64,000 nt of DNA from Pseudomonadota bacterium. Lineage in GTDB: Bacteria; Myxococcota_A; UBA9042. The notes under the pieces were generated by a model. The model ran no database searches, had not been told where the DNA came from, and saw only the letters and a program-made list of their open reading frames with translations. This document shows positions 17,768-64,000 of this stretch, piece by piece; the stretch's first letter is position 1; each line of letters begins with the position of its first letter. The stretch lies in NCBI GenBank assembly GCA_041163625.1, contig JBEARB010000330.1, positions 10,194 to 74,193 on the forward strand, read 5' to 3'. The position numbers were made by a program, and so were the translations under genes.

Positions 17768-20542
17768 TCATCGCCGGACGGCGAACCAACTGGTGGGTCG
17801 AGCCGGCCCCAAGCGCACCCGGCGCAACAGCAGATCCAGCAGCAGCAGCGCGATGGCAGCGGCCACCAGCGCCGCCCAGAGCGGCTGCCACGTTCGGGTC
17901 GTGGCCTGCCCGCGCTCCCGCCAATCGGCCGGTTTGGCGGCATTCTGACCGCCGGTCGACTGAACCAACGCCTGCAGGCCGACGGCTGCACCGCGCGCGA
18001 TGCGGAGCTCGTCGGGGTACGGCCGCACGGCAGTCGCGCGTCCGCGCAGCATCACCGGCTTCTCCGGCGCGGCGCGCAACTCGGTGAGGACGTCGTAGGG
18101 ACCGAAGGCGCTCATCGAGACCGCGGCCTCGTAGCGACCCAGCGCGACCTCCTGCAGTCGAATCGCACGCGGCGCGCCATCAGGTGCACGAACCGTGGCC
18201 TCCGCGAGCAGCCCGCCGACGTGCTGATCGTCGACGATGGCGTCCAAAGCGATCCGCATCCGCTCGTCTTCCCGCGCGAGACGGACGCGGACCTCACCGG
18301 CCAAATCCTCGCGTTGCAGGTCACGCACGAGCTGGCGCGCGAGCACGGCGTAGCCCGGCCAATCGATCCAATCCTGCGCCCAGCGGTTTTTCAGGTCGCT
18401 GGTCCAGACCGAGACCTTGCCCAGGCCGAGACGCCACCGCACCAAGAGCGGCTGGCCGGTCGAGAGGCGCAAGATCTCCTCGGCGCCCCGCTTGACCTTG
18501 CTCGCCAGGAAGCCGCGCAGCGCCGGGGCCCGCGTGACGTCGAAGCCGCGCAACAGCTCGACGCGGCCCAATCCCGGGGCGAGTCGGGCGCGGACGCGCT
18601 TCTCGACCACCGTCTCGCCGCTGATCTCCTTGGTCTCGCGGACGAAGATGCGAGGCAGCGTCTCGGGTCGGTCGGTGAAATACGAGCGGCCGCCGCCGCG
18701 GTCGGCAATGGATTCGAGCATCGAGCGGTCGACCTCGGCACCGACGCCGACGGTCGTGACCGTCACGCCCGAGCGCCGCATCTGCCGGACGAGCGCGTCG
18801 ATGCCGTTGCGCGGCGCCTGGCCGTCCGAGAGCAAGATCACGTGCTTGACCTTGGCCCGCACGCGCTCGAGCTCCGCGGCGGCCATCGCGAGGGCCGGGT
18901 AGATATTGGTGCCGCCGCTGGCCGAGATGCTGCCGATGCCGGTGGCAATGCGATAGCGGTTGCCGGCGCGCTGCAGGCTGACAACGCGGCGCGGGGCGTT
19001 GTCGAAGGCGACCACGCCGATGCGATCCTCTTGGCCGAGCGCCTCGGCCGTCGCGCGTGCCGCTTCCTTGGCGAGTTCCATCTTCTCGCCCTGCATGGAG
19101 CCGGAGCGATCGAGCACCAGCATCATCGCGATCGTGGGCTGCTCGACGGCCGAATCGACCTCCATCCGCACCGGCAGCACGTGCTTGTCGAGCCAGGAGC
19201 CCTGCCAGCCACCCGAGCCGAGCGCGTCCTCACCGCCGACCATCAACAAGCCGCCGCCCTCTTCGACGTAGCGTCCGAGCGCGCGTTGCTCGGGGTCGGG
19301 CACGAGCGGGACGCCGGCGGGCGAGACGCGCGCGAGGTCCGACAAGATCACGGTCTGGTAGCGGGCCAAGGCGGCAGCGTCGCGGGGCAACGCGTCGGGG
19401 CCACGCAGGGTGACCTCGAAGTCGTCGGCCAGCGCGCTCGCGAGCTGCCGCCCCATCGCGGGGTTGCCCTCGACGAGCAGCACGCTCGGGCGCGCGGAGA
19501 CCACGACGCGCACGCGCATCGCGTTGTTGCTGGGGAAGCGGTCGCCGCCCGCCACCAAGGCGCAGTGCGCGCGCAGCTCGTGGGCACCTGCCTCGCGGAT
19601 GCGGGCCTCGCCGAGCTCGACGTCGCGGCGACCGGCACCGAGTTCGGCGGCGATGGGACCGAGGTGGACACCCTCGCCGTCGAGCTCGCAGCGCACCGTG
19701 GCCGCCGCCGTGCTGCGCAGCCGCAGCCGCACGGGGAAGGGCAGGTTCGCGCGCACCCGCTCGGGGACGTGCACCGCCTCGACGAGAAACTCCGCCGGCT
19801 GCTGCAGGGGGCCGAGGTCGCCGCGGTGCACACGGGCGCCGGCGCGACGCATCAGGGGGGCCAGACGCTGGGCGTCGCCGCGCGTCTCGGCGCCGTCGGA
19901 CCAGACGACGACGTGGGCGACGCGTCCCGGATCGAGGTGGCCCAGCGCGAGATCGAGCGCCGCCTCGAGGTCGGTGGCGCCCTGGCTCTGCGGATCGCGG
20001 GCGACCTGCAGCGGCGGCAGCGGCGTCGCTGCGTCCGCGTCGTCGGTGGGCGTCGGGGGCCACGGCAGCCGACGTGCGCCGGCGTCGAAGGCGATGACGT
20101 GCACCGACGCTGCCTCGCCCTCGGGGTCGTCGCGATGCGCCTGTACGTCGGCGGTGATCGCCGTCAGCGCCTGCGCCAGCGCCGCGGGCGGCATCGACTC
20201 GCTTCGGTCCACCAGATGCACGATGGATGCTTGCCGCGGTCGCTCCTGCCGGCTGCGCGGCTCGGTCGCGGCGAGCACCAGCGCCGCGATCGCGAGCATT
20301 CGCGCCACTGCGCCGAACGCGGCCTGCCAGCGCGGCAGGTCGCCGATCGAACCGAGCGCCAGCAGCGGCACCAGCCAGCATGCCAGCAGCCCCCACAGCC
20401 GCTCGGGGTGCGCCAACTCGACGCCACCCGCCGCGAGCGCGCCGAGCCACGCCGGCGCTTGCTCGCGCGCCCACAGCGCGAGGCCGGCTCCGAGCGCGAG
20501 CCAGACGAGCCCGCTGACTACGGTGGCGACGCGCCCGCTCAC
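17768..20542 (-). CDS. BatB-like membrane protein with two VWA domains
   Basis: The GTG start at 20540-20542 overlaps the upstream stop (GTGA). N-terminal TM helices. Two MIDAS-containing VWA domains (VHLVDRSESM; LVLDRSGSMQGEKM). C-terminal TM helix. Confidence 0.7.
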   Translation of the reverse strand: MSGRVATVVSGLVWLALGAGLALWAREQAPAWLGALAAGGVELAHPERLWGLLACWLVPLLALGSIGDLPRWQAAFGAVARMLAIAALVLAATEPRSRQERPRQASIVHLVDRSESMPPAALAQALTAITADVQAHRDDPEGEAASVHVIAFDAGARRLPWPPTPTDDADAATPLPPLQVARDPQSQGATDLEAALDLALGHLDPGRVAHVVVWSDGAETRGDAQRLAPLMRRAGARVHRGDLGPLQQPAEFLVEAVHVPERVRANLPFPVRLRLRSTAAATVRCELDGEGVHLGPIAAELGAGRRDVELGEARIREAGAHELRAHCALVAGGDRFPSNNAMRVRVVVSARPSVLLVEGNPAMGRQLASALADDFEVTLRGPDALPRDAAALARYQTVILSDLARVSPAGVPLVPDPEQRALGRYVEEGGGLLMVGGEDALGSGGWQGSWLDKHVLPVRMEVDSAVEQPTIAMMLVLDRSGSMQGEKMELAKEAARATAEALGQEDRIGVVAFDNAPRRVVSLQRAGNRYRIATGIGSISASGGTNIYPALAMAAAELERVRAKVKHVILLSDGQAPRNGIDALVRQMRRSGVTVTTVGVGAEVDRSMLESIADRGGGRSYFTDRPETLPRIFVRETKEISGETVVEKRVRARLAPGLGRVELLRGFDVTRAPALRGFLASKVKRGAEEILRLSTGQPLLVRWRLGLGKVSVWTSDLKNRWAQDWIDWPGYAVLARQLVRDLQREDLAGEVRVRLAREDERMRIALDAIVDDQHVGGLLAEATVRAPDGAPRAIRLQEVALGRYEAAVSMSAFGPYDVLTELRAAPEKPVMLRGRATAVRPYPDELRIARGAAVGLQALVQSTGGQNAAKPADWRERGQATTRTWQPLWAALVAAAIALLLLDLLLRRVRLGPARPTSWFAVRR

Positions 20543-22539
20543 AGCGTCCTCCGACGTTGGTAGAGCGCCCACTCGAGCAGCAACAACCCGGCCACGGCGA
20601 CGACCAGGATGGTCCACGCCGGCCACGGCGAGCGCGGCGCGGCGTCGTGCGCGGCGCGGGCGCGGGGAGCCCAGGCGGCCGCGTCGGGCGAGACGCGACT
20701 CGGCTGCTCGGTGGCCGGCAGGATCGTCGGTCGCGCGATCTCGAAGCCTTCATGGCTGCGCCAGACGTGGATGCCCTGCACTTCGCTGCTCGCGAGCAGC
20801 GCGTCGTCGCTCGCGAAGGCGGCGCGCGCGGGCGTCCCGGGCTCGGTCCAGGTCCAGCGCTCGGCTGCGACCGGAAGCCCCAGCGCCCAGGGCCGACCGA
20901 CCTCGAGCGGCCCGACGACGGCCTCGTCTTCGCCCGCCAGCCACTCGACGGCGTTGCTCACCAGCAGCGGCAGGAAGTAGCGGCCGCCGAGGTCGGTCTC
21001 CAGCAGGTCCAACCCGAAGACCAGGCCGCGCACGCCGGCGTCCGTAGCGTAGGCCAAGGCGACGCCACCGCGCTCGCGCAGGAGCACCCGCGCACCGGTC
21101 GGCGGCGTCAACGGACGGACTTGGTCGACGTTGCCGTCCTGCAGCGAGAGACCGCGGACCACGGGATGTTCGTCGTCGCCCACCGCCAGCTCGCCGGCGC
21201 TGCGGGGCTCGGCGTCGCCGGCGGCGCCGTGCTGTCCGGCGCGCAAATCGAAGCGCCACGTGGGCGTGCCGTCGGGCGCCGGGGCGTCGACTTGGTCCAG
21301 GACCACGACGTCGATGCCGTGACCGAGCCGGCGGCTGCGGGCGAAATTGGCGGGCTGGTAGGCGTCGGGCGCAAGCCGGCGGACGTCGAAGCCGTCGTTG
21401 GCCAGGAGCGCGGCCTCGAGGAAGAGGTTGCCGCGGCCGACGAGCAGCACGCCCACCTTGCGGCGACGCGCCGCGACACCGAAGCCCCAATCGTCGTAGG
21501 GGGCGACGTCGCGCCAAGCGGCGCCGTCGGCGGGGCGGACCTGCACCGCGAAGCGACCGGGGGCCAGCGTGACGTCGGCGAACGCGACGCTCTGCACGGC
21601 CCGCGGTGCCAGTTCGACGACCTGCTCGGCGACGACGCTCTCGGCGCGCGCGAAGTCCACCGGGCCCTGGCCTTCGCGATCGGCCGAGAGCAGCACGCGC
21701 AGCCGGGTGGCGACGCCGCGATCGTTGCGGATCCGCGCCGTCACCACGCCGCGACCGGGGTCGGCTTCGGCAGCGCGGACACCGACGCGCTCGACGGCGG
21801 CGTTGTCGACGAGGCGGCCTTCGGCGGCGGCTTCGGGGCCCACGCGCCGCACGCGAATCGGGACGCCTCGCATCGACTCGGGCACGACGAAGCCGGTGGT
21901 ACTCGGGCCGCCGTCGGTGACCACGACCACGCGCGGCATCGTGCGCTCACGGACCGCATCGACCGCCGCTCGCAGCGCCCGCTCGAGGTCCAGGCCGGCA
22001 TCGGTGCTGCGCAGACCGGCGATCGCTGCGCGGACGGTCTGCGCCTCGTCACTCCAGGGGGCCTGTGTCCGCGGCGCGGCGGCGGCGGCGACGACCAGGA
22101 AGCGTTCGCGCGGCAACGCGTCGGCGACGATCTCGTCCAGCGCTTCCTGCGCGAGCTCGAGCCGGGTGCGCGGGAGCAGACCGGGCCCGGGATCGCCATC
22201 GACGGTCGCCATCGTCGCGGAGACGTCGACCAGCAGCACGGTATGGGTCGCCGGCGGCTGCTGGCGCTCCCGCAGCGCGCGCAGCCCCAGCGGCCCTTCG
22301 GCCAACGCGGCGAGCAGCCCGCTCGTGCAGGTCGCGAGGAAGAGCCACGAAAAGAACCGGCGCCATCGACGCCCGATGCGGCGCGACTCGGCGCGCTCGA
22401 GTACGGTGCGCCAGAGCGCGCCGAAGGGCACCGCCACCTGGCGACGGCGCGGCTCGAGCAGATAGAGCAGCGTCAGCACGGCGAGCGCGCCTGCCGCCCA
22501 CGGCCACCAGGCCTGCAGGGTATCGAAGGGGGCGATCAC
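20539..22539 (-). CDS. BatA-like VWA-domain membrane protein
   Basis: The GTG start overlaps the DUF58 stop (GTGA). N-terminal double-TM domain typical of the aerotolerance BatA N-terminus. VWA MIDAS (VLLVDVSATM). C-terminal TM helix. Confidence 0.7.
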   Translation of the reverse strand: MIAPFDTLQAWWPWAAGALAVLTLLYLLEPRRRQVAVPFGALWRTVLERAESRRIGRRWRRFFSWLFLATCTSGLLAALAEGPLGLRALRERQQPPATHTVLLVDVSATMATVDGDPGPGLLPRTRLELAQEALDEIVADALPRERFLVVAAAAAPRTQAPWSDEAQTVRAAIAGLRSTDAGLDLERALRAAVDAVRERTMPRVVVVTDGGPSTTGFVVPESMRGVPIRVRRVGPEAAAEGRLVDNAAVERVGVRAAEADPGRGVVTARIRNDRGVATRLRVLLSADREGQGPVDFARAESVVAEQVVELAPRAVQSVAFADVTLAPGRFAVQVRPADGAAWRDVAPYDDWGFGVAARRRKVGVLLVGRGNLFLEAALLANDGFDVRRLAPDAYQPANFARSRRLGHGIDVVVLDQVDAPAPDGTPTWRFDLRAGQHGAAGDAEPRSAGELAVGDDEHPVVRGLSLQDGNVDQVRPLTPPTGARVLLRERGGVALAYATDAGVRGLVFGLDLLETDLGGRYFLPLLVSNAVEWLAGEDEAVVGPLEVGRPWALGLPVAAERWTWTEPGTPARAAFASDDALLASSEVQGIHVWRSHEGFEIARPTILPATEQPSRVSPDAAAWAPRARAAHDAAPRSPWPAWTILVVAVAGLLLLEWALYQRRRTL

Positions 22540-23468
22540 CCGAGGAAGCCTCCGAGGCGGAAGATCTTCATCACGACCTCGTCGAAGGGGGTGGCGACGT
22601 CGACCCGTAGCGCGCGGGCGCCGACCTCGCGCGCCGCGGATTCCACGCGCGCCGAGAGCTCCTCGAAGACCTCCCGGTAGGTGGCGACGATCTCGGGCGT
22701 GAGCCAGATCTCCTGCCGCTCGCCGGTCTCGACGTCGACCAGCGTCAGGTCGCCGTAGATCTCGGCGCGGAACAGCCGCTCGTCGGCCAGCTGCAGCACC
22801 ATCGGCTCGTACCCGCGGGCGGCGAGGTCGCGCAGGCCGTCGCCGAGGCCGTCCGGGTCGTAGAGGTCGGAGATCAGCACGACGAGCCCCCGCCGCGGCT
22901 TGAAGCGCAGGAAGTCGCGGATCGAGTCGTGGATCGCGGTGCGACCGGCGGGCTCGAGCGCCGAGAGGGTACGCAGGATGCGGAAGAGCTGCGCGCGGCC
23001 GCGCACCGGGCGCTCGGGGCGCGCGCGACCGTCCGCCATCGGCGCGACCGAGACACGGTCGAGGTTGCCGAGCGCGATGTAGGCGAGCGCGGCGGTGATC
23101 TGCAAGGCACGATCGAACAGGCTCGGTTCACCGGGCGGCGCCATCGCCATGGACGGGCTGCGGTCGAGCAGGAAATAGACCGAGAGGTCCTCTTCCTCCT
23201 CGTATTGGCGCAGGAGCATCCGTTTGGTGCGACCGTAGACCTTCCAATCGAGGTGGCGCAGGTCGTCGCCGGGGCTGTAGTCGCGATGGTCGGCGAACTC
23301 GATGCCGCCGCCGATCTTCTTGCTGCGCCGCGCCGCCCGCTGCCCCGAGGAGGCCATCCGGCGCGCGAGCAAGGTCAGGTGCTCGATGCGGCGCAGGAAC
23401 GCCGCGTCGAAGAGATCGTCGCGGATCCCGGCGTGCGCGCCCCCGGCGGCGGGCCGCGACTCAGCCAC
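22536..23468 (-). CDS. DUF58-domain protein (MoxR-associated)
   Basis: DUF58 signature (ADHRDYSPGDDLRHLDWKVYGRT). 8-nt overlap with the moxR stop. Confidence 0.8.
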   Translation of the reverse strand: MAESRPAAGGAHAGIRDDLFDAAFLRRIEHLTLLARRMASSGQRAARRSKKIGGGIEFADHRDYSPGDDLRHLDWKVYGRTKRMLLRQYEEEEDLSVYFLLDRSPSMAMAPPGEPSLFDRALQITAALAYIALGNLDRVSVAPMADGRARPERPVRGRAQLFRILRTLSALEPAGRTAIHDSIRDFLRFKPRRGLVVLISDLYDPDGLGDGLRDLAARGYEPMVLQLADERLFRAEIYGDLTLVDVETGERQEIWLTPEIVATYREVFEELSARVESAAREVGARALRVDVATPFDEVVMKIFRLGGFLG

Positions 23469-24507
23469 CGGCGACCTGCTTGCCGACCTCTTGCAGGATG
23501 GCGTCGAGGACCTTGTCGCTGGCGACGCCGTCGGCTTCGGCGTCGAAGTTCAGCAGCACGCGATGGCGCAGGACCGGGCGCGCGAGCGCCTGCACGTCTT
23601 CGCGCGCGGCGTTGGGGCGACCGTCGAAGAGCGCGCGCATCTTCGCGCCCAAGATCAGCGCCTGCACCGCACGCGGGCTCGCGCCGGCGCGCAGGTATTG
23701 GCGGGCGGCGTCGGCGCCACCGTGGGTGGCCTCGACCACACGAATGGCGAGGTCGACGACGTGGTGGGCGATCGGCACGCCGAGCGCCAGCCGCCGCACG
23801 GCCAGGATATCGTCGCCGTGCAAGATCGCGCCGATCTCGTGCTGCTCGGCCTGCAGCGTGCGCGCGACGATCTCGTGCAGGTCCTGCCGGCTCGGGAAGG
23901 GCACGTCGAGCTTGAACATGAAGCGGTCGAGCTGCGCCTCGGGCAACGGGTAGGTGCCTTCCATCTCCAGCGGGTTCTGCGTCGCCATCACGAAGAAGGG
24001 CTTGGGCAGTTGGAGCGTCTCGCGCCCGATGGTCACGCGGCCCTCGGCCATCGCCTCGAGCAACGCCGATTGGGTCTTGGGCGTGGCGCGGTTGACCTCG
24101 TCGGCCAGCAGCAAGTTGGTGAAGACCGGGCCCTTGCGGAGTTCCAGACCACGGCCGCCGCGGCCGTCCTCGGCCAGCATGTGCGTGCCGACGATATCGG
24201 TCGGCATCAGGTCCGGGGTGAACTGCACGCGCGAGAAGTCGAGATCGACCGCCGCGGCGAGCGTACGCACGAGCATGGTCTTGCCGACACCCGGTACGCC
24301 CTCGAGCAAGATGTGGCCGCCGCAGAACAGGCCGATCAGCGCCCCCTCGACCACGGCGTCCTGCCCGACGATGACCTCGCCGACACCGGCGCGCAGGGCG
24401 CCCAAGCGGTCCCGGACCCAGGCGAGCGCGTCGGCGAGGCGAGCCTCGTCGGCGAGCGCCGCTTCGATGTCGGGGCGCGCCCCTGTCGAATCCGAAGCCT
24501 TGGTCAT
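23461..24507 (-). CDS. MoxR-family AAA+ ATPase
   Basis: Start at MTKASDST; the ATG overlaps the upstream stop (ATGA). Walker A (GVPGVGKT), Walker B (LLADEVNRA) and the MoxR motif ATQNP. Confidence 0.85.
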   Translation of the reverse strand: MTKASDSTGARPDIEAALADEARLADALAWVRDRLGALRAGVGEVIVGQDAVVEGALIGLFCGGHILLEGVPGVGKTMLVRTLAAAVDLDFSRVQFTPDLMPTDIVGTHMLAEDGRGGRGLELRKGPVFTNLLLADEVNRATPKTQSALLEAMAEGRVTIGRETLQLPKPFFVMATQNPLEMEGTYPLPEAQLDRFMFKLDVPFPSRQDLHEIVARTLQAEQHEIGAILHGDDILAVRRLALGVPIAHHVVDLAIRVVEATHGGADAARQYLRAGASPRAVQALILGAKMRALFDGRPNAAREDVQALARPVLRHRVLLNFDAEADGVASDKVLDAILQEVGKQVAGG

Positions 24508-26828
24508 CGTGTGCTCCTCTGCGTTTGCGCCGCGCGCGGTCGGATCAGCTCGTAGTAGCGGCGAACCATCGCCTTGCGTCCCGGCGGCAGGGACTCCTTC
24601 TCGAGCATCTCCTGCGCTACTTCCGCATATTCCGAATAGACCTCGCGCCACCCGGTGCGGGCGAAGCCCTTGCGAGCCGCGTCGACGAAGACGTCCTTGG
24701 TGCTCGGCCCTTCGCCGTGCTTGCCGCGAACCTGCTCGGTCCGGGCCGTGCCCTTGCGGGCGCCCTTGCCCTCGAGGTCGCGGCCGTCCTCGTGGCCGTA
24801 GGTCTTGCCGCGCCCACCGTCGCCGCCGCCCTGCTGCTGGAGCTGTTGGCCATCGGCCATCTGCTGCATCCGGCGGTCGTCGGAGAGCTCGCCCTGGCCG
24901 AGCCGCGTGGAGCGCTTGCGGCCCGAGCCTCCGGGCTGCGAGGGGCCACCGGACTCGCCCTGGCCGGCGGCTTGCCGGCGCCGCGCGGCGGCGCGTTCCT
25001 TGGCGGCCGCCTCGGCAGCCGCTCGGCCCTGCTTGCCGGCGCCGTCGCGTGGCTCTCCGCGCTGGCCGGACTGCGCGTCGCGTCCCTCTTCCTCGCCTTG
25101 CTTTCCGCCGCCCTCCTCGCCGCGCTGGCCCTTGGACTGCTGACCGCGGGCTCGGTCGGCAAAGTCGCGGCGCTGCGAACGCCCGCGCTCGCCGGCGCGG
25201 CGGAGGGCTTGGCGCAGGTCGCGCAGCCGTCCGTCGCCGATCCGGCGCGCCTGGCGCTCGCGTTGGCCCTGGCCCTGTCGACGCATCTCCTGCGCCGCCC
25301 GCTGCATCTGCTGGCGGACCTGTCCGGCGAGCGCCTTGCGCTGCTGCTGGCGTCGCGCCTCGCCCTCGGCACCGCCGCCCTTCTGTCGATCGATGCGGCT
25401 ACGCTCCTGCTGCATCCGACGCATCTCGTCGGCCGCTTGGCGAGCACCGCGCTCGAGACGCTGCAGCTGCCGTCCGGCCCCGGCGACGTCGCCGTGCTCG
25501 CGGCGCAACGCGTCCATCGCCCGGCGGGCGTTGTGCAGTCGGCGGTTCTCGGCCGGGGTCAGGCCGCCCTGTTGCTGGCGCTTCTGCTCGAGCCGGCGAA
25601 TGCGATCGGCGAGTTGCTGGAACTGCTTGGGCACCTCCTTGGCCCCGAGCGCTTTGGCCAGCTTCTCCGCCGCCTTGACCCAACCCTCGAGCTCCTTGTC
25701 GCTCATGTCGCGGTCGGCGAGCTTCTCGAGCGCCTTGGCCATCAGACCGAGGTCGCCCTTCTTGGCGGCGCGCTCGAGTTCGTCGCGCGTGGCGCCCTCG
25801 GGGGCCGCCTCGATCGCCTTCTCGACCGCCTTGGAGAGCGCCTTCTGTACCGCCCGATCGCGATCACGCTCGGCCGCGGCGGCGGCCTCGCGCGAGACGG
25901 GCTGATTCGGATCGCCGCTGGGATCACCGCTGCGAGCCTGCTCGGGTGGCTCGGGGCGCTCGGCCTCGAGCTCCGCGAGCTTGGCGAGCGCTGCGCGGCG
26001 ATCGAGCTTGCCGCTCTCGACGTCCTCGAGGACGCCTTTGACCCGATGCAGCCACGCGCGGGTCGGTGCGTCATCGACCTGGGCGGCCACGTCGGCGATC
26101 AGCTCGGCGTCCGCGCGCAGCAACTCGAGGGCATCGGCGCCCAGCAGCTCGGCCGCGACGACGACGCCGGCGTGGCCTGGGGGTAGGTCGAGGAGCAGGC
26201 CGTCGGCCCGCTGGCCGTCGATGCGGTCGCCGAGGAGCCACACCTGCGGCACGACCAGCGCCAGCATCGCGGCGACGGCGCCGGCAACGACCCAGCCGAG
26301 CCCGGCAGGCCGCGGCATCGGCAGCAGCGCGACGAGATCGAGCCCGGCAGCGGCGGACTCGGCGTGTCGCGCTTGCAGCATGGCGAACGGATCGTCGCGC
26401 CCCTGGCGCGCCAAGTCGAGCGCCGTGCTGATGTGGTCACCGCCACCGACCCGCAGATCCAACGCTCCCGCAGCGGCCAACCAACCCGGTCGGCGCCCCA
26501 TCGCCCAGGCGACGCCGAGCAGGCCCGCGATCGCGAGCACCAGCGCGGCCCCCACATCCCAGGCAGCCGGCCACAGCCCTGCCCGGGCCGCGAGCGCCCA
26601 GCCCGCGTAGGCCAGCATGGCCGGGGCCGCGACGTACGCGAGGCGGCCCAGCGCGCCGGCCCACCAGAGCCGACGTCGGGCGCGGCGCACCACGTCGATC
26701 ACCGCCGAGACCCGCGCGCGGCGCGGTGCCGACAGATGGACGGGACGCAGCGTGGCGGGAAGTGGGGTGGTGGTGGCTCGGCTCAACGCGATCTCCGGGC
26801 CGACGCAGCCGGCGTGGGGGCAACCCAC
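24504..26828 (-). CDS. membrane protein with a long R/Q/E/G-rich charged low-complexity region (hypothetical)
   Basis: First gene of the Bat-like string. About 4 N-terminal TM helices. A ~450-aa charged low-complexity region (RRQQQRK..., QGQGQRERQARR...). A conserved-looking C-terminus (TGWREVYSEYAEVAQEMLEKE). Start uncertain. Confidence 0.5.
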   Translation of the reverse strand: MGCPHAGCVGPEIALSRATTTPLPATLRPVHLSAPRRARVSAVIDVVRRARRRLWWAGALGRLAYVAAPAMLAYAGWALAARAGLWPAAWDVGAALVLAIAGLLGVAWAMGRRPGWLAAAGALDLRVGGGDHISTALDLARQGRDDPFAMLQARHAESAAAGLDLVALLPMPRPAGLGWVVAGAVAAMLALVVPQVWLLGDRIDGQRADGLLLDLPPGHAGVVVAAELLGADALELLRADAELIADVAAQVDDAPTRAWLHRVKGVLEDVESGKLDRRAALAKLAELEAERPEPPEQARSGDPSGDPNQPVSREAAAAAERDRDRAVQKALSKAVEKAIEAAPEGATRDELERAAKKGDLGLMAKALEKLADRDMSDKELEGWVKAAEKLAKALGAKEVPKQFQQLADRIRRLEQKRQQQGGLTPAENRRLHNARRAMDALRREHGDVAGAGRQLQRLERGARQAADEMRRMQQERSRIDRQKGGGAEGEARRQQQRKALAGQVRQQMQRAAQEMRRQGQGQRERQARRIGDGRLRDLRQALRRAGERGRSQRRDFADRARGQQSKGQRGEEGGGKQGEEEGRDAQSGQRGEPRDGAGKQGRAAAEAAAKERAAARRRQAAGQGESGGPSQPGGSGRKRSTRLGQGELSDDRRMQQMADGQQLQQQGGGDGGRGKTYGHEDGRDLEGKGARKGTARTEQVRGKHGEGPSTKDVFVDAARKGFARTGWREVYSEYAEVAQEMLEKESLPPGRKAMVRRYYELIRPRAAQTQRSTR

Positions 26829-26921: not shown

Positions 26922-26968
26922 AAAAATGCCGATCCGCCCCGGCGCGGTCTGCGTCCGGGGCTGATCGG
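26922..26968 (-). terminator. intrinsic terminator-like hairpin
   Basis: A 14-bp GC-rich stem with one mismatch (ccgatccgccccgg / ccggggctgatcgg) and a 12-nt loop, followed on the minus strand by TTTTT. It lies ~50 nt downstream of the 54-aa gene. Confidence 0.4.
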
Positions 26969-27013: not shown

Positions 27014-27178
27014 CTAGCGGCGGACGGTATCGAGCGAGATGGCCTCACCGAGGGCGGCCTCGAGCACCTTCTCGCTCTGAATGCGGTGCGCGCGACGGAT
27101 CTCGGCCTTGCGGCCAGCGCCGGCGGTGCGTCGCTTGTGCTTACGAATCTTGCGGGTCTGTTGAGTAGGCGAAGCCAT
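27014..27178 (-). CDS. small basic protein, 54 aa (hypothetical)
   Basis: MASPTQQTRKIRKHKRRTAGAGRKAEIRRAHRIQSEKVLEAALGEAISLDTVRR. SD GGAGGA 7 nt upstream of the ATG. Own downstream hairpin. Confidence 0.5.
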   Translation of the reverse strand: MASPTQQTRKIRKHKRRTAGAGRKAEIRRAHRIQSEKVLEAALGEAISLDTVRR

Positions 27179-27231: not shown

Positions 27232-27283
27232 TCAAGTGCGAAAGCGAAACGCCGGCCGAGGGACGGGGTCCCCCTGCCGGCGT
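27232..27283 (-). terminator. terminator-like compound hairpin
   Basis: An 8-bp stem (acgccggc / gccggcgt) enclosing a ggggtcccc sub-palindrome, followed on the minus strand by a U-rich tract (ttcgctttcgc). Immediately downstream of the 91-aa gene. Confidence 0.4.
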
Positions 27284-27309
27284 CCGCCTCAGGTCGTTCG
27301 CGACGCGAA

Positions 27310-27585
27310 TCAGATCTTGCGCAGCTCGTCGATGATCTCGGCCTTGATCCGAGCCTCGTCGCTGACCGAGAGCGCGCCCAGGGCGCGTGCCTCGATCGCC
27401 GCGAGGGCGGCGCGGGTCTCGGCGATCTCCTGACCGCGGAACTCGAGCTCGGCGTCCGGCGCGAGCGCGAGACCATGGCGCATACGCACCACCTTCTCCT
27501 CGACGTCGGTGAGCCCGAGCTGCTGCAGGCTGCGTTCGGTCGTCACGCGCGTTTGCGTGGCGGTCCGTGTGCGGGTCCTCGTCAC
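27310..27585 (-). CDS. stand-alone sigma-70 region-4-like small protein
   Basis: GTG start with AAGGGAG 7 nt upstream. LTDVEEKVVRMRHGL...LEFRGQEIAETRAALAAIEARALGAL aligns with sigma-70 region 4 (LTxREEKVLRMRFGI...LEEVG...TRERIRQIEAKALRKL). The recognition-helix arginines are replaced by Ala/Leu. Confidence 0.5.
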   Translation of the reverse strand: MTRTRTRTATQTRVTTERSLQQLGLTDVEEKVVRMRHGLALAPDAELEFRGQEIAETRAALAAIEARALGALSVSDEARIKAEIIDELRKI

Positions 27586-27787
27586 GGTACACTCCCTTTG
27601 CGGCCACGAAGACCGCAGGTTCGGGCGAAACCGCCCGCCAGCAAAGCGCGCGCAGCGCCTCGCCGAAGATTCACGCTACCCGATCCCGGACAAACCGCAA
27701 TTTTTCGATCGTTTCTGCTGCGAACTCGATCACTTGAGCCCAAGATCGGAAGATCGTGTGGAGATCTCGGGGCGGTCCGAACGGCGC

Positions 27788-29140
27788 TCAGGCCTCGCCG
27801 GGCGGTCGCTCCAGTCCGAGCTTCCGAACCACGTACTCGAGGCTCTTGCGATGCAACCCGGTGGCTCGTGCCGCCGCCGACACGTTCCAGCCGTGATGCT
27901 CGAGGGCGCGTTCCCAATAGGCACGCTCGAATGCATCGACCAGCCGAGCCTTGGCATCCTTGAAGGGCAAGTCGAAGCGGACCGGCACGCCGCCCTCTCC
28001 GTGGACGATCGGGGCGTCGGCGGTCTGCACGTCGACCTCGAGCTCGCGACCGGACGAGAGCACGGCGGCCCGCTCGATGGCGTTGCGCAGCTCGCGGATA
28101 TTGCCGGGCCAGGGGTGGCTCTGCAGGCGCTGCATCATCTCGTAGCCGATGGTCATCGGTCGCGTCTTGCCGTCGCGCCGGGCCGCCTCCTCGAGGAAAT
28201 GCTGCGCGAGCATCGGGATGTCCTCGGTGCGGCGCCGCAGCGGCGGCAGCGCCACGCGGACGACGTTCAGCCGCCAGTAGAGGTCTTCGCGGAAGGAGCC
28301 TTCCTTGACCATCTGTCCGAGATCGCGATTGGTCGCGGCGACGATGCGCACATCGACCCGGCGCCGATCGTTGCTGCCGACCGGGCGAACCTCGTGCTTC
28401 TCGAGCGCGCGCAGGAGCTTCGGCTGCAGGTCGAGGTCGAGCTCGCCGATCTCGTCGAGGAAGAGCGTCCCGCCGTCGGCCTCGGCCATCGCGCCGACGC
28501 GCGAGGCGACCGCGCCGGTGAACGCGCCGCGGAGATGCCCGAAGAGCTCGCTCTCGACGAGATTCGGTTGCACGGCCGAGCAGTCGAAGACGACGAACGG
28601 TCCTGCAGCGCGACGGGAGTGGCGGTGCAGCGCCTCGGCGACCAACTCCTTGCCCGTCCCCGACTCGCCCTCGATCAGGACCGTGACCTCGGTCGGAGCG
28701 ACCTTGCCGAGGTGAGCGAAAATCTCGCGCATCGCCGGCGCGTCGCCGAGCAAGTCGCCGAAGCGACGCTCACGTGAGAGCGCCACTTCGTGGGTCTCGG
28801 CCAGGGGTTCGACGAGCAGCTCGACCTGACCGACGCGCAGGGTGGTGCGATCGGTGAGCAGCCCCTCGACCAGGCGGCATCCGCCCATCCAGGTGCCGTT
28901 CTTGCTGCCGAGATCGCGGATTCGGAAGCCGCCGCGCTCGCCCTCGATCTTGAGGTGGTTGCGGGAGACCGACGAGTCCCCCACGACCACGTCGTTATCT
29001 GGCGCGGAGCCGACGTAGAGCAGGCGGCGCTCGAAGACCGTCGGCGCTGTGCCACGGCCACCGACCACGCTGATGCGCAGTCGCGGCAGAGTCAGCCGTT
29101 CGGGCAGAGCTGAGGTCAGGGTGCGGGTGGCGTCGTGCAT
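27788..29140 (-). CDS. sigma-54-dependent transcriptional activator with N-terminal FHA domain
   Basis: Start at MHDATRT. FHA motifs (YVGSAPDNDVVVGDSSVSRNHLKIE...GSKNGTWM). Sigma-54 AAA+ domain (GESGTGKE, GAFTGA, FLDEIGEL, ESELFGH). C-terminal Fis-type HTH. 450 aa. Confidence 0.85.
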   Translation of the reverse strand: MHDATRTLTSALPERLTLPRLRISVVGGRGTAPTVFERRLLYVGSAPDNDVVVGDSSVSRNHLKIEGERGGFRIRDLGSKNGTWMGGCRLVEGLLTDRTTLRVGQVELLVEPLAETHEVALSRERRFGDLLGDAPAMREIFAHLGKVAPTEVTVLIEGESGTGKELVAEALHRHSRRAAGPFVVFDCSAVQPNLVESELFGHLRGAFTGAVASRVGAMAEADGGTLFLDEIGELDLDLQPKLLRALEKHEVRPVGSNDRRRVDVRIVAATNRDLGQMVKEGSFREDLYWRLNVVRVALPPLRRRTEDIPMLAQHFLEEAARRDGKTRPMTIGYEMMQRLQSHPWPGNIRELRNAIERAAVLSSGRELEVDVQTADAPIVHGEGGVPVRFDLPFKDAKARLVDAFERAYWERALEHHGWNVSAAARATGLHRKSLEYVVRKLGLERPPGEA

Positions 29141-29169: not shown

Positions 29170-30960
29170 TCAGGGCAAGCCGCGGACCAGTCGAAAACCG
29201 GGCAGCCGACGCTGTTCGCCGGCCTTGAGGACGAGCTTGCGCGTCTCCTCGCGGCCGCTGATTGGGTCGCGGACCCGCAGCGTGCGCTCGCCCGCCGCGA
29301 TACCGAGCGCGTGCACGCCGTCCGAGCCGCTGCCGCCGGCGACCTTGCGGCCATCGACGTACACCTCGGCGTCGGCCGGCACGACGCGGAAGCGGACCTC
29401 GGCGCGGGCCACGCGAGCGGCACCGCGCCGCCCGGCGCTCGGCGCGGCCGGGCGCTCGGGCTCGCCGGCGCCAGCGGCGTCGGCCGAGGCGATGGCGCCG
29501 GCATCGGCGGCAGCAGCGGTCGCCGCGGCATCGACCGCGACCGGCTCGGCGAGCGCGGCACCGGCGTCCGGCTCGAGGGCGACGCGCGTCGCGGCCGCAG
29601 GCGCGCTGGTGATCTCGGCGATCGACACGGCGCCGGCATCGGGGTCGACCGCGACGCCGGCATCGGGCGCCGGCGCGGCGACGGCGTCGGCGAGTGCGGC
29701 GACGACGCCGTCGGCCCCGTCGGCCCCGGGCGCGGAAGCGGACGGCCCGCCGCCGCGCGTCCCCAGCCACCAGCCAACGGTGCCGGCGAGCAACAAGGCG
29801 ATGCTGGCCGCGAACAGCGTCCGTCGACGCACTTCGATGGTGCGCGCGCCGCGCAGGGCGGTCGTGTCGGGTCCGAGCGCCGGTGCGGGGCCCGCCGGCA
29901 AGGGCGAGAGCGCCGCCGCCAACTCCGGCGCGTCGGACGCCTTGGGCAACGCCAAACCGGGCAGACTGACGGTGCCGGTCGCCTCACCGGCCCCGCCGCT
30001 GCCGCCGTCGAGTAGGCCGGCGAGCGTGGCGTCGAACCCCTGCGCCTCGGCGTCCAGGCGCTCGAAGGCGGGTGCGAGCCGCTCGGCCAGGGAGCGTTCG
30101 GGGGTGGCGGCGCCCCGCTCGACCAAGATCTGCGCGACGGCCTCGGCGACCTCGGCGGCGTCGGCCGGACGGGCTTCGGGCGAGCGCGCCACCATGCGCC
30201 CGATCAGATCACGGGTCGGCGCGCTGACGCCGTTGTGCTCGAGCGCGACAAGGCGCGCGGGCAGGTTGGCCCACGCCGTCTCCAAGCCGGCCGCATCGAT
30301 CACCTCGAGCGCGCGCTCGGCGGTGAGCAACTCGAAGGCGCAAAGCCCGAGCGAAAAGAGGTCTGCGCGCGGATCGGCCTTCGCTGGATCGAGGTGCTCC
30401 GGCGCCATGTAGGGCAGCTTGCCGCGCAGCGAACCGGCCTCGCGCCGCGCCATCATCGCCGTACGGGCGACGCCAAAATCGACCAGCTTCACCAGCCCGT
30501 CGCGACGGACCATCAGGTTCGACGGCGTCACGTCGTAGTGCACGATGCCGAGGGGCTTGCCGTCCGGACCGTGGTGGGTCGCGGCGTGGTGCAGCGCGGC
30601 GGCGGCGGCGGCCAGCACGGCCAGCACCGAGACTTCGTCGAGCGGCCGGCCGAGGGCACGGAAGAGGGCGCGCAGATCGTGGCCGACGACCATCTCGATC
30701 GCCAGGAACCAGGTCCCGTCCTCGACGCCGAGGTCCAAGATCTGCGCGATGTTCGGATGATCCAGCGCCTCGAGCAGCCGGCCCTCGGCGACCAGCAGCT
30801 CGACCAGGCGTTGATCCGCCGCCAGTTCGGGCCGCAGCGTCTTGATCACCAGCCGCTTCGCGAAGCCGGCGGCACCCGGCGCTTCCGCCAGCCAGACCTC
30901 GCCCATGCCTCCGGTCGCGAGGTGACGGACGAGCCGATAGCGACCGAAGGCGCGGCTCAG
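29170..30960 (-). CDS. Hanks-type Ser/Thr protein kinase with TM segment and Ala-rich C-terminal region
   Basis: Kinase subdomains (LATGGMGEVW, AIEMVVGHDL, HYDVTPSNLM, DFGVAR, PYMAPE). Probable CTG start at 30958-30960 with GGAGG 6 nt upstream. No in-frame ATG exists upstream of the Gly loop outside the neighbouring gene. Confidence 0.75.
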   Translation of the reverse strand: MSRAFGRYRLVRHLATGGMGEVWLAEAPGAAGFAKRLVIKTLRPELAADQRLVELLVAEGRLLEALDHPNIAQILDLGVEDGTWFLAIEMVVGHDLRALFRALGRPLDEVSVLAVLAAAAAALHHAATHHGPDGKPLGIVHYDVTPSNLMVRRDGLVKLVDFGVARTAMMARREAGSLRGKLPYMAPEHLDPAKADPRADLFSLGLCAFELLTAERALEVIDAAGLETAWANLPARLVALEHNGVSAPTRDLIGRMVARSPEARPADAAEVAEAVAQILVERGAATPERSLAERLAPAFERLDAEAQGFDATLAGLLDGGSGGAGEATGTVSLPGLALPKASDAPELAAALSPLPAGPAPALGPDTTALRGARTIEVRRRTLFAASIALLLAGTVGWWLGTRGGGPSASAPGADGADGVVAALADAVAAPAPDAGVAVDPDAGAVSIAEITSAPAAATRVALEPDAGAALAEPVAVDAAATAAAADAGAIASADAAGAGEPERPAAPSAGRRGAARVARAEVRFRVVPADAEVYVDGRKVAGGSGSDGVHALGIAAGERTLRVRDPISGREETRKLVLKAGEQRRLPGFRLVRGLP

Positions 30961-30979
30961 GAGTGGCCTCCGCGCCCGC

Positions 30980-31837
30980 TCAGGCGACCGCGAGTCGGGC
31001 CGTGAGCCAGTCTCGCAGCGCAGCGAGCGGCCGGTCGCGCTCGCCGGCGGGCTCGTTGAAGAGCTCGTGGTAGAAGCCCTCGAAGACCTCGATGGTGCGG
31101 TCATCGGCGGCGACGCTGGCGAAATAGCGCTGGCCGACCTCGGGGTCGACGACCTGGTCGCCCGTCCCGATCAACGCGAGCAGCGGCACGTCGACGCGGA
31201 GCGGTGCCGCCAGGACATGCTGCTGCGCGGCCAGGAATTCGGCCCCCCAGCGGGTGGTGCCGGCGCCGAAGATCGCGGGATCCGACTCGTAGTCGCGGAC
31301 CGAAGCCGGGTCGCGGCTGATGTGCGACGCCGGGATGCCGACCGGCAACGCGACCGTCGGCAGCAGGCGCGAGAGCGTCTTCGCGGCGACGACCTTCCAG
31401 CCCGGAACCTCGACCGATGCGGCGAGCGCGGGATTCGAGAGCACGATTCCCGCCACCGGCAACGCGCGCTCACGCAAGGCATACGAGACCACCAAGCCCC
31501 CCTGCGAGTGCCCGAGCAGGTAGGGCACACGACCGGCCTCGGCGCGGACATGGTCGATGACCTGTCGCAGATCGGCAGCGTAGTCGGCGAAGGCGTCGAC
31601 GTGACCGCGCCGGCCACCCGAGGCACCGTGGCCACGCGCGTCGTACAGGAAGGTGTCGATGCCGGCGGCCGACATCGCCTCGACGAGGTTGCCGTACCGC
31701 CCCATATGCTCGGCGAAGCCGTGATGGACGACCAAGGTCGCGGCCGAGTCGGCGACGCGGTTCCAACGCCAAGCGAGACGCAAGCCGTCGCGGGCGACGA
31801 GTCGCCCTTCACGGGTTTCGATCGAGGTGGTGCTCAT
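30980..31837 (-). CDS. alpha/beta hydrolase (lysophospholipase / monoacylglycerol-lipase-like)
   Basis: Start at MSTTSIETREG with GGAG 5 nt upstream. Nucleophile elbow GHSQGG. HGxxE and a C-terminal FYHELFNE motif. Confidence 0.75.
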   Translation of the reverse strand: MSTTSIETREGRLVARDGLRLAWRWNRVADSAATLVVHHGFAEHMGRYGNLVEAMSAAGIDTFLYDARGHGASGGRRGHVDAFADYAADLRQVIDHVRAEAGRVPYLLGHSQGGLVVSYALRERALPVAGIVLSNPALAASVEVPGWKVVAAKTLSRLLPTVALPVGIPASHISRDPASVRDYESDPAIFGAGTTRWGAEFLAAQQHVLAAPLRVDVPLLALIGTGDQVVDPEVGQRYFASVAADDRTIEVFEGFYHELFNEPAGERDRPLAALRDWLTARLAVA

Positions 31838-31983
31838 GGGCGCTCCGCATGGCCCGGGTCCGGGGCAGCGGGAGGGTAGGACGCGACCGAGCCCGCGGCA
31901 AGACGCGTTGCGGGGGGCCGCCGCATGTTGCAGGATCGCGGACGCAGCCGGCAGCATCCGGCACAAGCCCACGGATTCGCCTC

Positions 31984-47210: not shown

Positions 47211-64000
<16,790 letters not shown>

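Follow-up and report, generated by a model that had tools for sequence, protein, structure and literature searches.

Can region 4 of a bacterial sigma factor stand as a gene of its own, and what would its product do once most of the residues that read DNA had gone? The question is raised by a small gene at 27310..27585 (minus strand) of a 64,000-nucleotide stretch of a Myxococcota_A genome (GenBank assembly GCA_041163625.1, contig JBEARB010000330.1; the whole stretch is referred to here as the window), whose 91-amino acid product we call sig4L, a name coined in the present analysis. Sigma region 4 is a hub at which the -35 element, the beta flap of RNA polymerase, many activators and phage take-over proteins meet. 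Conserved, stripped of most of the residues used for DNA reading, extended by a tail rich in threonine and usually found next to a Ser/Thr kinase gene, sig4L gives the impression of a regulator not described before and not of a broken gene. The reading that we prefer, with a probability of roughly 0.4, is that sig4L would act as a mimic of sigma region 4 through protein contacts, most likely at the tip of the beta flap, with the threonine tail serving as a handle for kinases and FHA domains.

Homology of sig4L to region 4 of primary sigma factors

The sig4L polypeptide (MTRTRTRTATQTRVTTERSLQQLGLTDVEEKVVRMRHGLALAPDAELEFRGQEIAETRAALAAIEARALGALSVSDEARIKAEIIDELRKI) was compared with sequence and profile collections singly and as a family profile built from 98 members. 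With phmmer, the sole matches among PDB sequences were region 4 chains of RpoD/SigA (best E=1.5e-5), and full-length RpoD models of NCBIfam matched residues 9-72 (E=1.3e-6). The family profile matched PDB RpoD chains at E=1.6e-14 and RpoS marginally, and hhalign against a profile of the RpoD C-terminus returned 98.9% probability, E=2.3e-17 and about 48% identity over 52 columns, pairing sig4L residues 23-74 with residues 549-600 of E. coli sigma-70 and stopping short of the N-terminal 22 and C-terminal 17 residues. These searches delimit a core homologous to regions 4.1-4.2 of sigma-70 (codons 23-74; 27364..27519, minus strand), which holds the most conserved block of the protein, LTxxEEKVVRMRHG, and a degenerate recognition helix, TRAALAAIE. 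As judged from the RpoD-model, PDB, profile and hhalign matches, sig4L is genuinely homologous to regions 4.1-4.2 of primary (group 1) sigma factors, in keeping with the alignment to sigma-70 region 4 that the initial annotation of the locus had made from the letters of the sequence.

That annotation had also named the absence of a significant Sigma70_r4 score as grounds for giving the homology up. No Pfam model, PF04545 (Sigma70_r4) and Sigma70_r4_2 included, matched the window protein even at E<=10, and PF04545 matched 1 of the 98 family members (E=5e-4). Taken literally, this null result would dispose of the homology, but the more sensitive comparisons overturn it. Pfam is blind to the family and NCBIfam has no model dedicated to it, its RpoD_Cterm model being matched weakly by 45 of the 98 members. 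Neither the window protein nor the 98 members matched GerE/LuxR or other DNA-binding helix-turn-helix (HTH) families, the only non-sigma match of the window protein being a marginal one to a CRP HTH model of NCBIfam (E=0.006).

A conserved core with a degenerate DNA-reading surface

Conservation was counted in alignments of 146 and of 98 family sequences. Conservation is at least 82% at L25, E29, E30, R34, M35, G38, L47, E65, I84 and L88, and 91% or more at most of these positions. The strongest peak is the region 4.1 helix (L25 91%, E29 94%, E30 95%, R34 99%, M35 96% and G38 99%, with further peaks at T26, V32 and R36), which matches the sigma-70 motif LTxxExKVLRMRFG. A second peak comprises L47, E48 and G51, equivalent to L573, E574 and G577 of sigma-70, and a third comprises L61, I64, E65 (97%), A68 and L69, equivalent to I587, I590, E591, A594 and L595. 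The fourth falls in a C-terminal amphipathic helix and consists of K81, I84 (82%), I85 and L88 (86%).

The surface that reads the -35 element fares differently. In sigma-70, R584, E585 and R588 specify the -35 bases (PMC2613000). The recognition helix TRERIRQIE of sigma-70 is TRAALAAIE in the window protein, in which the equivalents of E585, R586, R588 and Q589 are all alanine (A59, A60, A62 and A63) and the equivalent of R584 is retained as R58. Family-wide, position 58 is Arg in 48% and Ala in 23% of members, position 59 is Ala in 58%, position 60 is Lys, Gln, Arg or Glu, position 62 is Ala in 54% and position 63 is Ala, Glu, Leu or Met. Close orthologues differ in this helix (TRAALAA, VRAELRA, AAEELRA and VAAQLAA), which shows that no shared constraint acts on the surface. 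Conservation is low in the first HTH helix, and the basic patch of sigma-70 used by many activators (K593, R596, K597 and R599) is not kept in the family. The charge of the 50-residue core is likewise altered, with a median of -2.1 and a negative value in 85% of members, as against +2.9 in 61 RpoD proteins, and the isoelectric point (pI) of the core is 4.9 in the window protein versus 9.8 in E. coli region 4. The claim made for the locus at the outset, that the arginines contacting the -35 element are lost, thus holds for R586 and R588, both now alanine, and fails for R584; the broader point that most of the -35-reading residues have been replaced is borne out by the four alanines and the flipped charge of the core. 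From the sequence we strongly infer that sig4L has lost sigma-type DNA reading.

A free-standing family under selection

In an exhaustive profile search of 1.84 billion representatives, 372 matches were obtained, of which the top 150 were almost all 72-140 amino acids long, with about 145 clusters of small proteins of the same size leading the search; genuine RpoD appeared among the top 150 only as assembly-duplicated artefacts (P0029, P0145 and P0146), and P0010 was a repeat artefact. Among 5.8 billion clusters, a word-indexed search picked up no more than six relatives. The window protein is identical to one entry found in public metagenome-assembled genomes (MAGs; P0001) and is deposited at NCBI as RIT45_3911 [Pseudomonadota bacterium]. 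Named genomes with free-standing copies are Myxococcota or "Deltaproteobacteria" MAGs and one MAG labelled Bdellovibrionales, and the family members carry the database label "hypothetical protein" or, in IMG, a COG-style "sigma subunit", which is a mislabel. Full-text searches of the literature collection used turned up no account of a region 4 protein that stands alone, although such an absence is no proof. The family HMM (hidden Markov model) found no paralogue in a six-frame translation of the window, tblastn found no homologue in 50,697 phage records or in the plasmid collection searched, and a screen for membership of a defence system gave only a marginal match to the sigma factor MzaA and generic AAA+ matches.

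The gene could be taken for the decaying 3' end of a sigma-factor gene that had been broken up, as the initial annotation had allowed, or for a chance open reading frame (ORF): it is short, starts with GTG, lacks a Pfam match and resembles only the last 60 residues of RpoD. At every orthologous locus (36-88% identity), however, sig4L is the same free-standing gene of 82-130 codons with the same N-terminus and usually a GTG start, preceded by 130-370 nucleotides of non-coding DNA where measured, and no upstream sigma regions or longer sigma gene were found at these loci. The polypeptide of 91 amino acids contains no sigma region 2, and the 200 nucleotides upstream of it are non-coding. The ratio of nonsynonymous to synonymous substitution (dN/dS; Nei-Gojobori) between the window gene and nine orthologues is 0.16-0.64, and GC content by codon position is 0.72/0.49/0.89, a coding signature in a window of 70% GC. 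Together with the roughly 145 clusters of equal size and the conserved promoter-like block, ribosome-binding site and start codon described below, these findings make a fragment or chance ORF extremely improbable and refute decay; they uphold the part of the initial annotation that saw a stand-alone region 4 homologue. sig4L belongs, as a functional member, to a family of small proteins (72-140 amino acids) that had not been described before.

Expression signals

The GTG start, AAGGGAG Shine-Dalgarno (SD) sequence and hairpin that had been noted for the ORF are all present. The first in-frame start codon is GTG (27585..27583), the stop codon is TGA, and the SD sequence (27592..27598, minus strand) lies six nucleotides 5' of the start, its form in an alignment of orthologous upstream regions being (A/C)(A/G)GGAG. 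The GTG start is kept in 9 of the 10 orthologues compared, and its retention may reflect deliberately limited translation initiation. Abutting the SD sequence on its 5' side is a short GC hairpin of 5-6 bp (27600..27616, minus strand; GCGGTC/GGCCGC), whose stem, read by eye, varies between loci yet still pairs (GCGGC/GCCGC, GCGTCC/GGACGC and GGCGC/GCGCC) and which may control translation or mRNA stability. On the 3' side of the stop codon a GC-rich, terminator-like hairpin (about 27242..27289, minus strand) has a folding energy of -48.1 kcal/mol (z = -3.5), equalled by 1 of 200 shuffled sequences, and is followed by UUUCGCUUUCGC.

Alignment of 11 orthologous upstream regions revealed a block resembling a sigma-70 promoter at 27673..27731 (minus strand). 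It consists of two GATCGA boxes 21 nucleotides apart (27731..27726 and 27710..27705), followed by an A-tract, TTGCGG (27700..27695), a 16-nucleotide spacer and TAGCGT (27678..27673), and it is kept across loci whose sig4L proteins are 36-88% identical. Its layout suggests a promoter of the sigma-70 type joined to a two-site operator for some regulator, and the predicted 5' end of the transcript lies near 27666. It was recognised solely by comparison of orthologues, a simple sigma-70 promoter scan having found nothing above its thresholds 5' of sig4L. With its own promoter-like block and terminator-like hairpin, sig4L is most likely transcribed alone.

Since the gene upstream encodes a sigma-54 activator (see below), sig4L was considered as a direct target of that protein. 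No -24/-12 element (TGGCAC-N5-TTGC, up to two mismatches) was found in 27586..27790, window-wide counts of such matches equalled chance expectation, and manual inspection upstream of sig4L found only GG/GC pairs at the wrong spacing; on these grounds direct sigma-54 control of sig4L by its neighbour is improbable, and this candidate was rejected.

The threonine-rich tail, the C-terminal helix and the predicted structure

The N-terminus of sig4L is a basic, threonine-rich tail (codons 1-24, MTRTRTRTATQTRVTT...; 27514..27585, minus strand; charge +3.5), a feature that the initial annotation missed together with the kinase, FHA-activator and 54-amino acid neighbours of the gene. Across the family, the 16-30 residues before the LT motif contain 21% Thr, 12.5% Arg and 8% Lys, compared with 3.9% Thr in the rest of the proteins, and each tail has on average 5.9 Thr and only 1.6 Ser (6% Ser). 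Threonines are enriched at spacings of 2 (z=11.1) and 4 (z=9.8) and not at 1 or 3. By its periodicity, this T-x-T-x-T pattern is that of a predicted extended strand with Thr on one face and Lys, Arg or Gln on the other. The tail has a median charge of +2.6 and is positive in 90% of members, opposite to the acidic linker between regions 3.2 and 4 of sigma-70.

The C-terminal amphipathic helix (codons 76-90, K81-x2-I84-I85-x2-L88-R89; 27316..27360, minus strand) was delimited by conservation, helix prediction and phmmer. Its K-x3-I-x2-L spacing echoes R-x3-L-x2-F of the RpoD C-terminus, with which it is colinear in the phmmer alignment to chain 9gdo_F, a segment left unaligned by hhalign. An AlphaFold2 (AF2) model from a 6-sequence alignment was poor, with a pLDDT (predicted local distance difference test) of 61. 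With 98 sequences the model reached pLDDT 78 and a pTM (predicted template modelling score) of 0.42, with helices at 11-22, 27-37, 55-73 and 76-90 and no helix at 38-54; this model matched no sigma-4 structure and showed no compact sigma-4 fold.

These features bear on the idea that sig4L binds nucleic acid with a new specificity, through the residual HTH (T57, R58 and K/Q/R60), through the tail laid as a strand in a DNA groove or on nascent RNA, or through both. The HTH framework is kept, T57 and R58 occur in 34-48% of members, the tail is basic, and its period-2 polar pattern is inferred to resemble DNA-reading beta-strands. The net acidic core, the Ala-rich recognition helix that varies among close orthologues, a first HTH helix that is poorly conserved and not predicted to be helical, and the missing match to LuxR/GerE or any other DNA-binding HTH family all speak against this idea, which we consider unlikely.

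Genomic neighbourhood of sig4L

In the window, the genes on the minus strand are ordered alpha/beta hydrolase, kinase, FHA activator, sig4L, 54-amino acid ORF, 774-amino acid protein, MoxR, DUF58 and two VWA proteins. Adjoining sig4L upstream is the activator gene (27788..29140, minus strand), in which Pfam recognised an FHA domain in the place of a receiver, a sigma-54 AAA+ domain and an HTH_8 domain; its translation shows an intact GAFTGA motif. At 29 nucleotides upstream of it lies a gene for a Hanks-type Ser/Thr protein kinase (29170..31104, minus strand; Pfam), the sole kinase match in the window.

Comparison of 31 family loci defined three main contexts. In clade A (the window, L007, L008, L010, L011, L090-L095, L171, L172 and L174) the order is (hydrolase), kinase, FHA activator and sig4L, usually followed by a protein of 52-54 amino acids; this kinase-activator-sig4L order is kept at loci with sig4L identities of 36-88%, and the genes further downstream vary between the MoxR operon, an SLT-domain protein, a TonB receptor and an aldolase. 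The FHA activator adjoins sig4L at every clade A locus whose DNA reaches upstream, and this link is specific to the clade, which stands apart from the rest of the family in a neighbour-joining tree. An exception resembling clade A is the contig of P0020, in which sig4L and a gene for a 53-amino acid protein are kept, the kinase and activator are absent and an SMC_N protein is encoded upstream. In clade B (L013, L016, L032, L056 and L176) sig4L follows a gene for an FGE-sulfatase-like protein (256-267 amino acids) and precedes, in most loci by about 20-50 bp, a gene for a kinase-AAA16-TPR protein of roughly 1170 amino acids, which combines a Ser/Thr kinase, AAA_16 and TPR/MalT-like repeats in a PknK-like architecture. 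In clade C (L012, L014, L017 and L175) a divergent hydrolase or HNH gene lies upstream and RecJ follows. Of the other contexts, that of L018 features a PilZ protein and that of L099 a kinase gene lying 1 kb downstream.

The scans for loci also yielded mostly genuine rpoD genes sharing EEKVVRMR, which were reused as a control set; none of these 134 loci (1.29 Mb) had a kinase match. The link between sig4L and kinases is recurrent, in at least three architectures, and not universal. A Hydrolase_4-type alpha/beta hydrolase was observed near sig4L in differing contexts (30980..31972 on the minus strand in the window, recognised by Pfam, and also L009, L018, L171, L172 and L175), an arrangement that may point to an ancestral pairing of hydrolase and sig4L, between which the kinase and activator genes would have been inserted.

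The clade A arrangement suggests that sig4L might serve solely as an adaptor of its neighbouring activator, the phosphorylated tail docking on the FHA domain to control assembly of the AAA+ ring and the core being mere scaffold. The kinase-activator-sig4L order holds in all clade A loci reaching upstream despite changing flanks, the tail is rich in Thr and not in Ser, and the activator has an intact GAFTGA with FHA in the receiver's place. Set against this, clades that lack a nearby FHA activator conserve the tail and the core equally well, the high conservation of region 4.1 speaks for a separate ligand of the core, and the conserved promoter-like block and terminator place sig4L outside the activator's operon; we hold an adaptor role alone to be improbable.

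Directly downstream of sig4L, with its own SD sequence and a terminator at 26943..26928 (minus strand), is the gene for a very basic protein of 54 amino acids (27017..27178, minus strand; pI 11.8, charge +9.7; MASPTQQTRKIRKHKRRTAGAGRKAEIRRAHRIQSEKVLEAALGEAISLDTVRR). The protein is encoded next to sig4L in most clade A loci and was found only in loci of that type; its homologues are 49-89% identical and so more conserved than sig4L itself, and it matched no Pfam or NCBIfam family at E<=10 and bore no likeness to NepR. Such a pair could form a partner switch in which sig4L, a sigma-domain homologue that no longer reads DNA, is a decoy that does not touch RNA polymerase and sequesters a protein that normally binds region 4 of the primary sigma factor, or another partner such as the 54-amino acid protein, with threonine phosphorylation of the tail flipping the switch. 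The opposite charges of the co-conserved partner (+9.7) and the sig4L core (-4), the persistence of the pair on the P0020 contig, the nearby kinase and the precedent of phospho-controlled sigma mimicry by PhyR and NepR (PMC4551977) are consistent with such a switch. Several points tell the other way: the 54-amino acid protein is confined to part of clade A and lacks any NepR, Pfam or NCBIfam likeness, a protein of charge +9.7 is unlikely to bind the authentic, basic region 4 of sigma-70, the sigma-70 patch that many activators use (K593, R596, K597 and R599) is not conserved, and sig4L has no receiver domain. We regard the decoy as possible, if rather unlikely.

A proposed mimic of region 4 at the beta flap

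sig4L descends from region 4.1-4.2 of a group 1 sigma factor and has exchanged most base-reading residues for alanine, inverted the charge of its core and acquired a tail with Thr at every second position. In the reading that we prefer, it would no longer read -35 DNA and would act by protein contact as a mimic of region 4, most likely docking on the flap tip helix at the RNA exit of RNA polymerase, a position that it would either occupy or compete for. Its extended Thr/Arg/Lys tail would point to the RNA exit, open to kinases and readers of phosphothreonine; the co-located Ser/Thr kinase could phosphorylate it, and in the window's clade the adjacent sigma-54 activator could read it through its FHA domain. 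FHA domains read phosphothreonine. The threonine-rich segment, a co-encoded Hanks kinase and an FHA protein are all present in the window and in clade A loci, and some clades have neither a kinase nor an FHA gene.

Binding to the flap tip is favoured because the conserved parts of sig4L are region 4.1 and the C-terminal amphipathic helix. In sigma factors, region 4 contacts the flap tip helix and region 4.1 lies at the RNA exit (PMC6755090; bioRxiv 10.1101/2023.06.09.544244), and the C-terminal residues of sigma-70 are the target both of the flap tip and of T4 MotA (PMC6755090 and its reference 46).

Several observations weigh against this reading. Conservation of the residues that are kept does not by itself mark a flap-binding surface, since they also make up the hydrophobic and salt-bridge core of any sigma-4 fold. 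The hhalign alignment does not reach the N- and C-terminal helices that in sigma-70 help to form the flap pocket, the AF2 model gives no compact sigma-4 fold, and the tail threonines show no obvious match to the preference of FHA domains for a hydrophobic residue at pT+3. No kinase or FHA gene lies nearby in the RecJ, PilZ and SMC_N/SLT contexts, for which reason the kinase link is not universal, and at about 3 of about 8 independent architectures it is only moderately significant. The beta flap also seats the core-binding domain of sigma-54 (bioRxiv 10.1101/2023.06.09.544244), so a flap binder would not simply favour sigma-54 transcription; the idea of a flap binder that favours sigma-54 over sigma-70 is weakened to that extent.

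A more elaborate form of the preferred reading would make sig4L the cellular counterpart of a phage region-4 replacement, that is, a kinase-controlled clamp on the flap whose phosphorylated T-x-T tail recruits the FHA AAA+ activator or other readers of phosphothreonine. This form we consider distinctly doubtful; if true, it would connect Ser/Thr-kinase signalling straight to RNA polymerase and to the choice between sigma-70 and sigma-54. Myxococcota encode hundreds of Ser/Thr kinases, most of them without known targets, and the repeated linkage of sig4L with kinases and with an FHA-bearing sigma-54 activator suggests a path, open to test, by which signals from eukaryote-like kinases could reach RNA polymerase in this phylum.

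Other features of the window

Downstream of sig4L and its small neighbour lies an operon of the Bat/MoxR type (17768..26828, minus strand; Pfam), which encodes the 774-amino acid protein, a MoxR AAA+ protein (bpMoxR), a DUF58 protein and two VWA proteins, one of them GATase1-like, followed by a radical SAM gene. The 774-amino acid protein has no Pfam domain and is conserved together with the MoxR operon in related loci. At 47211..63596 (minus strand) a giant ORF of 5461 codons contains at least 25 MopE-type putative metal-binding motifs (PF11617) and a C-type lectin domain; its GC content at the first codon position, 0.54, is unusually low for the window.

Comparison with known systems

The closest relative of sig4L is region 4 of RpoD/SigA, with which it shares the residues L551, V558, R560, M561, R562, G564, L573, E574, G577, I590, E591, A594 and L595 (sigma-70 numbering). 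Unlike RpoD/SigA, sig4L is free-standing and lacks regions 1-3, F580 is not kept, and a periodic Thr/Arg/Lys tail stands where the sigma factor has the acidic linker between regions 3.2 and 4. sig4L does not qualify as a sigma factor, as it has no region 2, has lost most of the -35-reading residues and, by sequence, falls below the Pfam threshold.

The transcription interface proposed for sig4L is the one used by T4 AsiA, Rsd, gp67 of phage G1 and the Wbl proteins of actinobacteria. To our knowledge, AsiA, gp33, Rsd and the others that occupy or mimic region 4 are all unrelated to it in sequence, and sig4L would be the first cellular homologue of region 4 for which a region-4-replacing role is proposed. 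A widespread, selected, free-standing homologue of region 4 without its DNA-reading surface would be a new class of bacterial transcription regulator.

T4 gp33, a co-activator of late transcription, is small, acidic and helical, does not bind DNA by itself and clamps the flap tip helix "as sigma R4", although it is structurally unrelated to region 4, and its tail binds an activator, the sliding clamp (PMC7892883). The likeness is one of analogy only: sig4L is a true homologue of region 4, to which gp33 is unrelated in structure and in sequence, it is cellular, and the putative partner of its tail is an FHA domain or a kinase, not the sliding clamp. T4 AsiA, for its part, has been described as "a mimic of sigma R4" (PMC6755090). 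In the alphaproteobacterial general stress response, the sigma-derived domain of PhyR is a phosphorylation-controlled mimic that works with a small partner, NepR (PMC4551977). sig4L resembles this system in concept only, as a sigma-derived domain that is not a sigma factor and would have a small partner protein: PhyR mimics an extracytoplasmic function sigma factor (sigma-2 and sigma-4) and carries a fused receiver phosphorylated on Asp, whereas sig4L is a group 1 region 4 alone, without a receiver, is linked to Ser/Thr kinases and has a 54-amino acid neighbour unlike NepR. sig4L is a real, previously unnamed family that extends the known theme of sigma-domain mimicry.

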